From: an uncultured Verrucomicrobiae bacterium
GTDB taxonomy: Bacteria; Chlamydiota; Chlamydiia; Chlamydiales; Rhabdochlamydiaceae
Direction: 5' to 3'
NCBI GenBank assembly: GCA_963731265.1
Contig: CAVSUE010000001.1
Coordinates: 864,997-928,996, forward strand
DNA: 64,000 bases
Shown here: in pieces, positions 14,090-18,834 of the stretch
Numbering within the stretch: the first letter of the stretch is position 1
Layout of the letters: each line of letters opens with the position of its first letter
Translations under genes and position numbers: made by a program
Notes under the pieces: generated by a model
Told to the model about the DNA's origin: nothing
What the model saw: only the letters and a program-made list of their open reading frames with translations
Databases searched by the model: none

Positions 14090-17000
14090 CTACTCACCCC
14101 ATATTTCCTTTTCGAGTCGACCAACCGAGTCGTACTTAATTGTTTTACATGAACCATTGGGTAAGGAAATGTGGGTCAATTGATTGAATGAATTATATTC
14201 GTAAGAACTGACTTCTCCCTCTGCATCGGTGACTATTTTCAGATTGTGCTGATTGTCGTAGTCGTAAGAAGTCTTAAAATTTCGAGGATCTACAATTAGC
14301 CTCAGATCTCCTGTCTTAATCATAGGTAAAGTGAGTCGTGCCTAGGGGGGTTCGAACTTCTTTTAATTGACCGCTTTCATCATAATCATAACTTTTCTGT
14401 AACCCAAATCCATCGGAAATTTCATGAATTTTACCCTTTTCATCGACTTTACGTTCAACAACGTATCCCATTGGGTAAGAGATTTCCTTCAGTTGGCCAT
14501 GATCATCATAATCAAAAGAGGTGGTACCTCCTCGAGTATCTTTGCGGCTCTTTAGTTGACCTGTAATTTTATCGTAATTGAAATAGGTGGCAGGCCCTTT
14601 AATCTGAATCCCTGTATAGATCTGAGCAAAGAGATTATTCTCATCGAATTCTAAGTAAGTGTTTGCATAATTTTGGCTGAGTTGTTGATTGACTCCAAAA
14701 TACCAATTCCAAATTGTTCTTTTATTGGGTTCTCTTCTTGCGACTAACTTTCCAGCTAAATCATAAAAGAATCTCCATTCTGCTCCTGCTGAATTTTTCA
14801 AATAGATCGGATTGCCAGCCGGATCATAATGGCATTTAGTAATCCCTTTTTTAGGATCGATGATTTTTGTAGGAAATGGAACATGGACCTGCTCATACTC
14901 AAACTCCCATATTAACCCTCCCGGATCTTGCCTGTAAATAAGCTTGTCTTTTTCATCGTACTTTAAAATCGATTCTCTTCCTTGATGATCATAGACTTTC
15001 ATAACTCTCTTTTCCAAAGAAAAATCGGCTTGATAACTGATCCCTCCTTCTTTGATCAAAGTAGCACGATTGTAATCATCATAAGCGGCTTCAAACAGTA
15101 TATTTTCCAAACGATCGGTTATTTTACTAAGCCGCTGATCTAAATCGTAGGAATAACGGAGATAGGGGCCACTTACGTCGTCCACAGTTTTTAACTGGCC
15201 ATCAGGGTGATACGTATAGTACACAGAAGTATTTCCAGGCCCTATAGCTTTGAACAGGCGATTCTCTTCGTACTCAAGAAGGATAGTGGCTCCATTTTGA
15301 TGACAAATGCTAACAAGCTGATCACCTCGATAGCGATATTCGATCGAGAAACCATTTGTATCGAGAGTCCTGATAAGTCTTCCACCTTTATCAAAGTCGA
15401 CACGGCCAAAGCGAGGAATATAAAAAGAGAAGGTGCCGTTCAAATTATCTTTTAAGAGCCCTGAATAATCAGGGCTATTAAAGACAGGACAGTTATCTGA
15501 GCTAAGGGCGAAAGGTTGAAAGAAACATTCTGCGTCAGGAGTTCTGACTAAAATGGCTCGACGGGTTTCACAACTTTTATCATCCTGTGAACTAAGAATC
15601 ACTTTTTCCAGGGAAATCTCTAGCTCGTAGGGAACTATTCTCCACCCACGTCCTAAAGCTGCTTCCTTTTCAGAAAAAGAATTGTAAAACCGATACAAGG
15701 TAAGCTCTTGATTCCCAGGAACTGGAAAATTCATATCGACATAGCTTTTTTTCACATTACCAGGCTTTCTCGTCCGTGAAATACTTTGAGCAGCGGCCAT
15801 AAAGGTTTCACGATTGGTTGGAGATCGGAAAGTCCATGTGAAGTCTTGCTCGGATGGTCTGGATCTCAAAGCTGAAATCGAAAAATCATTGACAAGTGGA
15901 TCTACATAAGTCGCGAAATTCGAGCTATTCAATCTGTAATCAACCCCTCCTGAAGCGGAGAAAGAGTATGTATATGGAACTGCCACCTTTTTTTTCTTTT
16001 TATGTCCCGGAACTTTATGCTTTTCCGTTTTTTCAACCATCCATTCACCGCGACTTTCTGTAGAAGGAGTATATGCGACTGTTTCTATCTTTTTAGGCTG
16101 ATAATTGATGAAAAAAGAAGGATCGAAAGGGATGTTGTTTTCTCTAATCCATTTGACGATAGCAGTAATTTTACCTAGAGTCTTTAACTTCTCTAAGATG
16201 GGATACTGCTTTGAAAATTCGTCGAAATGAGCAGTAAAATGTTCAGCAAATTCGCGGCAAGCTGGCACGTCCGAAGGAGAGCCGTTGAATTGTGACTCTG
16301 TAAGCACTTTCATGCGTACATCGCTAAACACCATGCCTTTGTGATCTTCCGCTTCCACAAGAGTAATTTTATCGGGGACAAACCACATACGATGGCCTAC
16401 CGCCGTCTGGCTAAAAAACTGATGTGCAGCTAGCCTATTAATCAGACTGGAGTAACCAGGCACATTTGCAGATACGGCTTGCCCCGAAATATTATCTTTG
16501 CCAAGCTCGAGGCATTTGAGCAGTCTATCTGCTTCAAACATGATTTGCCCAAATGAGGTATTTGCAGTTGCCCCGTCATATCTAACTTTCATTTGCCCTG
16601 CAAAAGGAGAAGATTCAGTTCCAATTGAAACACCTGGATCTTGAGGACAAGGTAATCCAATGCTGTAAACAGATCTGACTGCAACAGCTAAGTCATCAAG
16701 ATCAATCGGTGGAAAATACCGATCTTCGGGACCAAAGAGGACAAGCTGCCCTGTGATAGGGTCGAAAGCGGCACCTGTAATATCGGCAAGGTTTAACTGA
16801 AGCTCTGCTGTTTTTGAAAGGCTAACTCCCCCAAAATCTAAATTGGGAGAGGAGATGAAACCTAAGGAAGGGGAAGGTGGAGCGGGATGTGTAATTTCTA
16901 TCTTTTCTCTGGGATAACTAATAATGCGGGGATCTATCCCATGAAATTCTAGCATCTGAGATCTCAACTCAGAAGGAAGTGGCAGGAATTTGCTTAAATG

Positions 17001-18834
17001 GATCTTTTCTCCATGAATGAAACCCATCTCTTTCATTCCTTCTACAGCTGTGTAAACACAATTTTTGCTCAGGGTCCATTTAATTTGGGTCATGAGAGCA
17101 AGAGCCGTATCCACTCCAGACGACTTGCAAAGACATTCAAAGGTAGCTGTGTTTGCATTAATGTTTTTTTGGTCATATGACTGCATACCTTCTGGATAAT
17201 TACCTTGGAAGAGATTGCGATCGGGAAATTCTAAACAGACATGTCCGAACCAGCCCTGCCCTCCAAACAACCCACCTAGGTCATTGATATGTAACCCTCA
17301 CTCGTTCCCATGCTTCAGGACTGACACCCTCCAATCCCAAAGGGTCGATAAAATTTACCGGATTATTCTCGACATAGCAATAGGGATTGACGGTTGAAGG
17401 ACGATCTAACTTGCCAGGACGAGGGTCTTTAGAAATAAATCTGCCGATCTCTGGATCGTAGTAACGATTTCTAAGGTAGATGAGGCCAGTTTCCTCGTCG
17501 AATTGTTCACCACAATACTTATAGACATTTGGGACATTTTGTTCTTCGGAAAGAGAGCCGCCAAATGAATCGTAATTATAAGTATTTAAGACTTTGCCTG
17601 AAGAGCTGACAAGGTTTGAGACATTTCTTCCAAGACTATCGTAAAGATAAAACTGCGTCCTGCCATCAGCAGATTGAGAGATCCGTGAACCTCCGTAGGT
17701 ATAACGGATCGTTTTCTCCCCTTTCCACCAACAGCCCTGCACCTTCTTAAGAAGAACTTGCGTTACTGGCGCTACAAGATCATTAATATACTCAGTACAT
17801 ACACCATTGACTGTTTTAGAAATCCGATTCCCATTACCATCATATTCAAAGGCAACTTGATTAGTTTCATCTGAATAAGAGATCAACCGATTGTCAAAAT
17901 CATATTTATAGGTAGCTTTGCGCGCTGGAGAAGATTTTTCAATTAAATTGCCCGCAAGATCGTACTCATAAACTGTGTCACCTGCCTTTCTAAGGCGATT
18001 TTCTTCATCATATTCATAGACGATCTTTCCTTGAGGTGTCGTTTTGCTGCGCCGATTCCCTGCTCCATCGTATGAGAACTCCTCAAAAAATCCGTCCGAA
18101 TGCTCTGATTTTACAATTCTATTGAGTTTATCGTAGATATAAATGACATGCGAGTTGACTTCCGAAGAGATTTTTTCAATTTTTGTTCGATTCCCATTTT
18201 CATCATATGCATATCTAAATTCCTCGATGAGGATCCCGTCTGCCTTTTTGTGAATAACATTTGATATTTTTCGTGTTTTATAATATTGATACTCAGTCGT
18301 TATGCCATTAGGTAATGTTTTCTTCTTGAGAGCATTGCTCAGCTCATCATATTCAAATCTGGTGACACCTGAAGAATCTTTGACAGTTTCTAATCGATTA
18401 GAAAGATCATAGGTATATTCAACTTCAGTTCGGTCTGGATAAACAAGTTTAATGAGATTGCTTTCAGAATCGTAATAGTAGGAGACAGTCTGGTCATCGG
18501 GAAAAGTGACTTTGGTAATTCTGCCAAACTCATCAGGTTCAAAGAGAGTAGTGCCCCGATGATCTTCCATTTTTGTACGTATGCCGCTTAGATCATAGGA
18601 ATACGTAACACTTTTGCTATCAGGGTAATCAATTCTTTCTAGCCGGTTGATTAGGTCGTAGTGAAATTGAGTGACAAATCCTCTCGGATCTGTAATATCT
18701 TGTACATTCCCATATTTGTCATAAGAATAGGATTTTACGGAAATAGCGTCAGAAGTATTGGGGAATAGCAATAAAACGATCCACAGGAAGTGGAGCATTA
18801 GTTTATAAGAGTCAGTTAACATAGAGAAACTCAC
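14090..18834 (-). pseudogene. Rhs/YD-repeat gene split into three ORFs (17281-18834, 14316-17270, 14090-14323) by two apparent 1-nt insertions; permuted domain order
   Basis: YD repeats; core signature EQFDEETGLIYLRNRYYDPEIGRFISKDP..NPVNFIDPLGL. Removing one base near 17295 and one near 14318 joins WERV-GLHINDLGG and TYD-KTGDLRLI in frame. Confidence 0.8.

Follow-up and report, generated by a model that had tools for sequence, protein, structure and literature searches.

The window analysed here, a stretch of 64,000 nucleotides (nt) of contig CAVSUE010000001.1 (assembly GCA_963731265.1), carries on its minus strand, from 18834 to 14090, an Rhs gene in which the two halves of the YD shell stand in swapped order. 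We hold it to be likely that a chlamydia-like bacterium here carries an Rhs toxin-immunity locus in decay, and that the principal gene of this locus is a pseudogene from a conserved class of circularly permuted Rhs proteins that are exported by Sec. The gene now lies in three open reading frames (ORFs); removal of two inserted single bases restores a single protein of 1,580 amino acids (aa), to which the residue numbers of the window protein refer.

The canonical order of Rhs proteins is DUF6531, YD shell, DPxG autoprotease and C-terminal toxin. The window protein departs from this linear order of plug, whole shell, core end and terminal toxin: it runs from a signal peptide through a first YD half-shell (A half), the core end with its DPLGL motif, an internal cargo domain (HC), a disordered linker, a second globular domain (MID) and a DUF6531 plug to a second YD half-shell (B half; Table 1). 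The plug precedes the second shell half only. The Pfam RHS_repeat model matches ORF1, ORF2 and ORF3 with E values of 1e-38, 5e-25 and 7e-17, respectively. DUF6531 narrowly passes its cut-off of 24.1 bits on ORF2, with 24.5 bits and E 3.5e-5 at residues 514-559 (about nt 15594-15731), and it is precomputed on most homologues too. In ORF1 the core end reads RYYDPEIGRFISKDP…NNPVNFIDPLGL and is followed by 16 more codons. Both aspartates of the autoprotease motif RYYDPEIGRFISKD...NNPVNFIDPLGL show no variation in an alignment of 51 sequences, nor does the glycine three residues past the second Asp. N-termini of a similar signal-peptide kind, judged by sequence features, are present in nearly all of 52 homologues, and the linker varies in length and sequence within the family. 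A sequence-only reading of the window had already named the signal peptide, the YD repeats, the core end, the DPLGL motif at 17332-17346 and the repair to one ORF, and all of these were confirmed on the window ORFs.

Comparison with solved structures revealed the swap. Residues 54-501 of the window protein align with residues 854-1290 of RhsA (7q97_A), the closing stretch of that shell up to the core end, and residues 1161-1575 match residues 307-726 of RhsP (8h8a_A). The exchange of shell halves put forward in the sequence-only reading is borne out in that the A half matches the C-terminal part and the B half the N-terminal part of solved Rhs shells. A de-permuted alignment was made by placing the B half before the A half, and its profile was searched against the PDB. 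This profile matches the Salmonella bongori Rhs core 8qjb_A (1,077 aa) colinearly from chain residue 33, in the plug, to residue 1077, at the core end; the plug region corresponds to profile positions 82-277 against chain residues 33-242. Single alignments (profile 483-781 and 468-1096) cross the artificial junction near profile position 626 uninterrupted, and the total shell length of the window protein equals one canonical core. The AlphaFold model of ORF2, with a mean predicted local distance difference test (pLDDT) of 85.8 and a predicted template modelling score of 0.71, superposes on the Rhs cores of type VI secretion system (T6SS) effectors, about 540-640 of whose roughly 1,040 residues are matched. 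On its own the B half is modelled as approximately half a cocoon, and a fold search with the ORF2 model returned matches to Rhs, teneurin and Tc shells only. Taken together, these comparisons support a circular permutation of one Rhs shell.

The architecture is not confined to the window. A database search with ORF2 yielded 93 relatives, about 50 of which have 1,490-1,630 aa and come from chlamydial metagenome-assembled genomes (MAGs) and metagenomes; intact homologues of the whole arrangement were retrieved with E = 0. The best intact relative, P0002 (1,576 aa), is colinear with ORF1, at 79% identity over residues 1-508, and with ORF2, at 66% over 527-1500, and runs on through ORF3. The closest homologues belong to Simkaniaceae and other Chlamydiota MAGs, and on this ground the host is taken to be a chlamydia-like bacterium. 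When 52 full-length homologues were aligned to the repaired protein, few gaps appeared and every module was kept; mapping of motifs and segments placed core end, HC, MID and DUF6531 in this sequence in all of them. Since the intact homologues are colinear and their order is the same throughout, and not the canonical one that would have spoken against the sequence-only reading, the permuted architecture is genuine.

The spread of the class was further examined with an MID profile in species-representative genomes, in which modules were mapped with hidden Markov models (HMMs) built from our own alignment. In 39 of the 65 MID loci obtained, the core end precedes MID and MID precedes the plug within one ORF. 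Fifteen of these 39 are chlamydial, all with HC. The other 24 come from about ten phyla and include Holophagales, Myxococcales, Pirellulales and other Planctomycetota, Blastocatellia/Pyrinomonadaceae, and MAGs of Verrucomicrobiota, Latescibacterota, Bacteroidota, KSB1, Desulfobacterota and Pseudomonadota. In these 24 loci the stretch from core end to MID has 100-380 aa and is completely variable, with conserved flanks; some segments are Gly/Ala-rich and hydrophobic, others soluble, and a Pro/Gly-rich counterpart of the linker comes after them. No Pfam match was found for the variable segments of ten non-chlamydial loci. By its sequence the segment follows the pattern of a polymorphic toxin cassette, but with conserved sequence on both sides, while in Chlamydiota the cargo is always HC. 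The notion of a distinct class of secreted Rhs container, advanced for this one locus, therefore stands as regards a conserved and widespread class, which is not specific to the window organism and spans many phyla.

Some individual loci showed further features. The loci L045 (Blastocatellia) and L062 (KSB1) have a common cargo type (…GSYWIG.NRSG…LGD/N…ARRHDIQYY / ARWHDIQDY…) without a Pfam match, which suggests cargo exchange between lineages; its HD..Y motif is, we presume, reminiscent of phospholipase A2. In L024, L025, L043, L046, L049 and L071, from Holophagales, Verrucomicrobiae, Pirellulaceae and Planctomycetota MAGs, giant ORFs of 3,600-4,700 aa enclose the permuted unit, and in L024 and L025 the first half-shell is duplicated. 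L013 (CAWESW010000097.1), in a MAG labelled 'uncultured Verrucomicrobiae', carries a permuted HC-bearing Rhs gene, whose MID is 71% identical to that of the window, together with a gene of the LYTK family described below; it may be a mis-binned chlamydial contig.

Table 1. Features of the window around the permuted Rhs gene (positions in the window; residues of the repaired protein unless stated otherwise).
Feature	Position	Strand	Remarks
ORF1	18834..17281	-	517 aa; signal-peptide-like N-terminus …LWIVLLLFPNTSDA|ISVKSYSYD, straight into YD repeats and Rhs core end
ORF2	17270..14316	-	984 aa; domain of about 110 aa, Pro-rich stretch, domain of about 260 aa, DUF6531, YD repeats
ORF3	14323..14090	-	77 aa; YD repeats only
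Signal peptide (residues 1-30)	18745..18834	-	...LLLFPNTSDA|IS; charged N-region, hydrophobic core, small residues at -1/-3
A half, first YD half-shell (residues 31-430)	17545..18744	-	RHS_repeat E 1e-38; equals C-terminal part of canonical Rhs shell
Rhs core end	17326..17544	-	RYYDPEIGRF...NNPVNFIDPLGL; autoprotease-motif aspartates D470, D497; DPLGL 17332-17346
HC domain (residues 523-632)	16938..17267	-	internal cargo; predicted permuted papain-like His/Cys hydrolase (H531, N591-C592)
Pro-rich disordered linker, cargo to MID	16851..16937	-	AlphaFold2 pLDDT <50 at ORF2 residues 114-141
MID domain (residues 662-920)	16074..16850	-	GGVSLSKTAE...FEADRLLK...RMWFVP...LTE...KITAIVKWI; conserved alpha/beta domain, AlphaFold2 pLDDT about 90
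Variable Lys-rich insert, post-MID beta region and DUF6531-type plug (residues 921-1110)	15504..16073	-	Pfam DUF6531 E 3.5e-5
B half, second YD half-shell (residues 1111-1580)	14090..15503	-	ends ...YDSVGRLEKEIWGE; Pfam RHS_repeat; equals N-terminal and middle canonical shell
Frameshift 1	17295..17297	-	one extra G in GGG run; ends ORF1 16 codons past DPLGL
Frameshift 2	14318..14319	-	one extra T (gatTaag); last 77 residues cut off
LYTK protein, 155 aa	13614..14081	+	family HMM E 6e-47; candidate immunity; convergent with Rhs gene
LYTK gene fragment (...SIEWEELYTK)	18831..19010	-	disrupted by 100-nt palindrome; 4-nt overlap with Rhs start
LYTK protein, 151 aa	19018..19473	-	family HMM E 2e-57; candidate immunity; upstream of Rhs gene
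Second permuted Rhs gene remnant	20437..20598	-	signal peptide and first YD repeat, 53 aa; truncated at 85-nt repeat
LYTK protein, 165 aa	20627..21124	-	family HMM E 2e-55; candidate immunity of second, lost Rhs copy

The HC cargo, LYTK proteins and the MID domain

HC is predicted to be a permuted papain-like His/Cys hydrolase. A Gly-His pair, an Asn-Cys pair and one Pro are invariant across 23 diverse members, and the AlphaFold2 model (pLDDT 85-97) puts the His immediately ahead of a strand and the Cys where a helix begins, which is the arrangement of permuted papain-like hydrolases. Pfam gave weak matches to Lnb_N (E 0.05) and PPPDE (Peptidase_C97; E 0.13). An exhaustive HC-profile search of 1.84 billion representatives retrieved 134 proteins; besides the permuted Rhs proteins these include canonical ones with HC at the extreme C-terminus, for example P0119 (Transglut_core-DUF6531-RHS-HC, 1,727 aa), P0189 and the short Rhs protein P0121 (605 aa). 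An HC-type domain also ends P0147, a bacterial teneurin-like protein of 2,525 aa. HC therefore counts as a true Rhs cargo module: the internal domain first noted as toxin-like is one that closes ordinary Rhs proteins elsewhere. Upstream of P0121, at L077 2-748, lies the end of another Rhs gene whose C-terminal domain also has G-H … N-C, that is, a tandem of HC-like toxin genes.

The family that we call LYTK comprises proteins of about 150 aa with a signal peptide and a C-terminal …EW..LYTK motif. Its 46 database members are all unnamed and without Pfam domains, and several share contigs with Rhs homologues. Every chlamydial permuted Rhs gene with sufficient flank has between one and four LYTK genes in tandem immediately upstream, and the family is absent from permuted loci without HC. 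The gene 8 nt downstream of the canonical, HC-ending P0121 is also a member (E 6e-27), as is a partial ORF that overlaps the end of P0119 (E 2e-5). LYTK is proposed as the periplasmic immunity protein of HC because it tracks HC, occurs in the classical immunity position, forms tandem copies and outlives the toxin genes of the window; a periplasmic immunity protein would suggest that the target of HC lies in the cell envelope.

The same observations bear on a different reading, in which an intracellular bacterium uses the protein as an effector against its host, not as an interbacterial toxin, and the LYTK proteins are chaperones or export partners. The chlamydial members do belong to obligate intracellular lineages, and a polymorphic-toxin survey (PMC3482391) has proposed for such lineages toxins that are aimed at the host and lack immunity genes. 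Moreover, HC is conserved and not polymorphic within Chlamydiota, and the LYTK gene stands upstream, not downstream, of the permuted gene. We nevertheless regard a host effector as rather unlikely: directly after canonical HC-ending Rhs genes LYTK takes the place of a classical immunity gene, it follows HC and not the shell or MID, its tandem arrays hold up to four paralogues, and in the window it is intact while the toxin genes decay, a pattern typical of immunity genes.

The MID domain, of about 260 aa, is among the most conserved parts of the protein in the alignment with the 52 homologues. The initial label of a DUF1598-like globular domain can be kept only in part. A conserved globular domain of this size is present, but similarity to DUF1598 (PF07643) is sub-threshold, with 12-13 bits for the window against a cut-off of 25 (E 0.1-0.2); 9 of 20 members match, the best with E 0.0017, and DUF1598 is probably a remote relative of part of MID. 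By sequence, MID found no match in the PDB, and it passes the threshold of no Pfam family. The domain occurs without any Rhs part in proteins of about 430-660 aa (L031, L033, L035, L039, L053, L054 and L059), for example in Armatimonadota and Anaerolineales, and in P0093 it is fused to MAM, PKD and dockerin domains. These contexts point to an extracellular binding or enzymatic role. In a search of BFVD with the HC+MID model (window 15846-17270), the sole significant fold match was a 'J domain-containing protein' of Tupanvirus soda lake (A0A6N1NXY0_2; E 4.9e-8, 386 columns), and a giant virus of amoebae may therefore carry an MID-like domain.

Proposed closure of the shell and split relatives

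For the two halves to form one shell, the C-terminus of the protein would have to meet its mature N-terminus. The proteins end in …YDxxGR(L/P)xxEIxGx and the mature N-termini begin with xSxKSYxYDxxGN. The number of residues after the last YD plus that before the first YD is 17-22 in 46 of 53 sequences, with an internal YD spacing of 20-21, so that the two ends jointly make up one repeat period.

In some relatives the A and B halves are encoded by two neighbouring genes, both of which have a signal peptide. Methyloprofundus (L008) has a 1,026-aa B half, a small gene and an A half, and marine bacterium B5-7 (L023) a 962-aa B half followed by a 622-aa A half. In L010 a small gene is followed by a 611-aa A half that bears a C-terminal domain of its own, and then by a 59-aa membrane protein, one further gene and a B half. 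Both gene orders thus exist, B then A in L008 and L023 and A then B in L010. The occurrence of the halves as separate neighbours indicates that this family, like TcB/TcC, has a shell made inherently of two pieces, which the chlamydial protein carries as an A-then-B fusion.

The possibility was considered that the architecture is real but that the YD blocks form no single cocoon, the A block with core end and cargo being self-contained and MID, plug and B half making up a separate adhesin-like body or an open beta-sheet. Short Rhs proteins of about 600 aa with an A-type layout exist as genes of their own (P0121 and the 611-aa protein of L010), and the Pfam RHS_repeat model (38 residues) gave no significant bridging on artificial C-to-N peptides, the best E being 0.086. 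Against such a division, each block amounts to about half a solved Rhs core and the two jointly match a core from plug to core end; the termini lie in complementary phases of the YD repeat in the 46 sequences mentioned, A-type and B-type genes are neighbours in the split systems, and the MID-bearing B halves in the sample always end at one point of the shell. Two separate bodies are accordingly judged unlikely, and we infer from the alignments that the halves co-fold into one shell.

Probable decay of the window locus

The toxin gene of the window is dead through two 1-nt insertions, and a second copy is down to 53 codons, while three immunity-type genes remain intact. Deletion of one G (17295-17297) and one T (14318/14319) gives the 1,580-aa ORF with zero internal stops. 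Across frameshift 1 the read-through peptide ERVRLHINDLGG is identical in two homologues, and at frameshift 2 the repaired FTYDKTGDLR corresponds to FTYDDGGDLR of P0002. A Logan contig (run ERR11523676) has the same three ORFs and is 100% identical to window 11316-18937 (7.6 kb), both frameshift sites included. The window gene is most probably a pseudogene, because neither site resembles a programmed shift, ORF2 has no export signal and the shell loses its last 77 residues through the second shift.

That the copy still works, by programmed frameshifting or as a secondarily split three-ORF system, is very improbable. Split two-gene versions do exist naturally, but each of their halves carries its own signal peptide; ORF2 lacks one and starts inside the cargo region, the truncation by the second shift would remain, and programmed frameshifting is rejected as neither site has the look of a slippery sequence. 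An assembly chimera or chance juxtaposition of unrelated Rhs fragments, a 3' piece with toxin and a 5' piece, might be read from the three ORFs and from the repeats, palindrome and truncated second copy of the locus, but it is practically dismissed by more than 50 intact homologues (30-66% identity) and the 39 independent genome loci with the same order in one ORF, and by the identical independent assembly.

The convergent LYTK gene at 13614-14081 had suggested an inversion, but this model was rejected; the present orientation is native, as the upstream LYTK fragment overlaps the Rhs start by 4 nt. Within this fragment lies the 100-nt palindrome, at 18908-19007, with two 50-nt arms that are 98% complementary and without spacer; the independent Logan contig ends within it (window 18937). 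Between the LYTK genes, two minus-strand ORFs at 19843-20202 (119 aa) and 21121-21399 (92 aa) have signal-peptide-like N-termini and acidic tails; the 119-aa ORF gave zero Pfam matches.

The second gene start of the same design, at 20437-20598, had been noticed before and is a real 53-aa ORF, cut short at an 85-nt repeat. The repeat is direct, with 89% identity between 20364-20448, at this truncation point, and 21494-21578, at the start of a spermidine synthase gene; it may be an element like a miniature inverted-repeat transposable element or a deletion scar. Inverted repeats of 33 nt (97% complementary) at window 19584-19781 flank a 132-nt stretch with a 46-aa ORF (…HEAQLLSYLKFAGCQVGLLINFN…), which we take to resemble a fragment of a GxxExxY-type small protein. 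On the contig, which has 2.0 Mb, the flanking chromosomal genes are ordinary: LicD, a phosphoenolpyruvate-utilising enzyme, spermidine synthase, MFS and SNF transporters, TamA/TamB and NfeD.

Proposed working and relation to known systems

In the proposed working of intact members, Sec would export the permuted Rhs protein. After export the C-terminal strand of the last half would pair with the mature N-terminal strand of the first, and the halves would close one cocoon, as TcB and TcC do as two polypeptides. The core end would cut after DPLG and free the N-terminus of the cargo. HC, probably inside the cocoon, would stay tied through the linker of 30-50 residues to MID, which would sit outside beside the plug, and its release would need a further event at MID or the plug. 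HC would then be a toxin acting on the cell envelope or in the periplasm, and LYTK would shield the periplasm of the producer as immunity protein.

Several results weigh against our reading, in addition to the missing Pfam bridging of the seam. The single predicted cleavage would leave the cargo covalently bound to MID, and the N-terminal cleavage motif of T6SS Rhs proteins (PVxxxxGE-type) is not evident in the window protein. Neither MID nor, in Foldseek, HC has a significant fold match in the PDB, for which reason the papain-like assignment of HC rests on motifs, secondary structure and weak Pfam matches. Two more distant HC proteins, P0147 and P0188, have different neighbours. As regards the pseudogene, the Logan contig was possibly built from the same reads as the genome, and other public runs with near-identical sequence, which are low-depth environmental traces, miss both frameshift sites.

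The closest structural relatives are the T6SS Rhs effectors (RhsA 7Q97, Rhs1/Tre23 7PQ5, RhsP 8H8A, Tse5 8CP6, Tse15 8UY4 and 8QJB), which likewise have a YD shell, a DUF6531-type plug, a core end with two invariant Asp and DPxG-L/F, and the cargo directly after the cleavage motif. The window protein differs from these in the swapped halves and in the internal cargo followed by linker and MID; in place of PAAR, VgrG or prePAAR modules it carries a Sec signal peptide, and its immunity-type gene lies upstream. In Tc BC (TcB-TcC, 4O9X and 4IGL) the cocoon is built of two edge-to-edge pieces, as is proposed for the permuted family. The core-end/cargo piece of the window protein resembles TcC, and the core end of the family matches TcC chains in the search of the de-permuted profile against the PDB. 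TcB-TcC fusions, natural as well as engineered, have B before C; in the window fusion the C-like part comes before the B-like part, and MID has no counterpart in Tc. Pfam gave no match to SpvB or a beta-propeller in the window protein, and no TcA-like gene was present in the contexts examined.

Teneurins and bacterial teneurin-like proteins (6FB3, 9IFO/9PT5) share the YD shell with plug, and the bacterial P0147 ends, as mentioned, in an HC-type domain. They provide the precedent that a chain past the core region may exit the shell and bear folded domains outside. Their order is canonical and their autoprotease aspartates are lost, whereas the window family retains the Asp; NHL, FN-plug and TTR domains are absent from the window protein, and TEN_YD-shell is sub-threshold with 25 bits against a cut-off of 50. 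On these comparisons the window protein is neither a Tc BC pair nor a teneurin.

Sec-exported Rhs/WapA-type toxins, grouped as 'T2SS' (type II secretion system), with signal peptide, RHS repeats, C-terminal toxin and adjacent immunity gene, are described in the survey by Zhang et al. (2012, PMC3482391). The window locus agrees in signal peptide, RHS repeats, putative toxin and adjacent candidate immunity gene, but its cargo is internal while theirs is C-terminal. The permuted order is not described in that survey. Nor was a permuted or order-swapped Rhs protein found in the open literature searched, an incomplete collection that includes the same survey and a 2026 proteome-wide circular-permutation survey (PMC13552848). 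The class is apparently undescribed.

We tentatively suggest, as a possibility well short of probable, that permuted Rhs proteins are a third structural class of YD shells beside Rhs/Tc containers and teneurins. Here a tethered toxin would lie in the cocoon with its linker threaded past the plug to an external MID, and the cargo would be pulled or set free by what happens at MID, for instance its binding to a receptor or a membrane, giving delivery without T6SS or TcA in more than ten phyla.

How cargo enters, is retained in and leaves Rhs cocoons is still debated. In every solved Rhs example that we know of, the toxin is a free C-terminal tail. The permuted cargo would instead be anchored by its two ends until cleavage and by a single end thereafter, which constrains models of encapsulation and release. 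The natural permutation would show that the shell can break and rejoin at a fixed seam, as in TcB/TcC, in the opposite fusion order. It also points to a Sec-dependent route for Rhs toxins without T6SS or TcA in diderms, Chlamydiota included, and three uncharacterised modules are gained, the putative HC toxin, the LYTK immunity candidate and MID. Annotation calls for caution, as permuted genes are filed merely as 'RHS repeat-associated core domain-containing protein'. The copy in the window is dead, and it has revealed a class that is alive and widespread.

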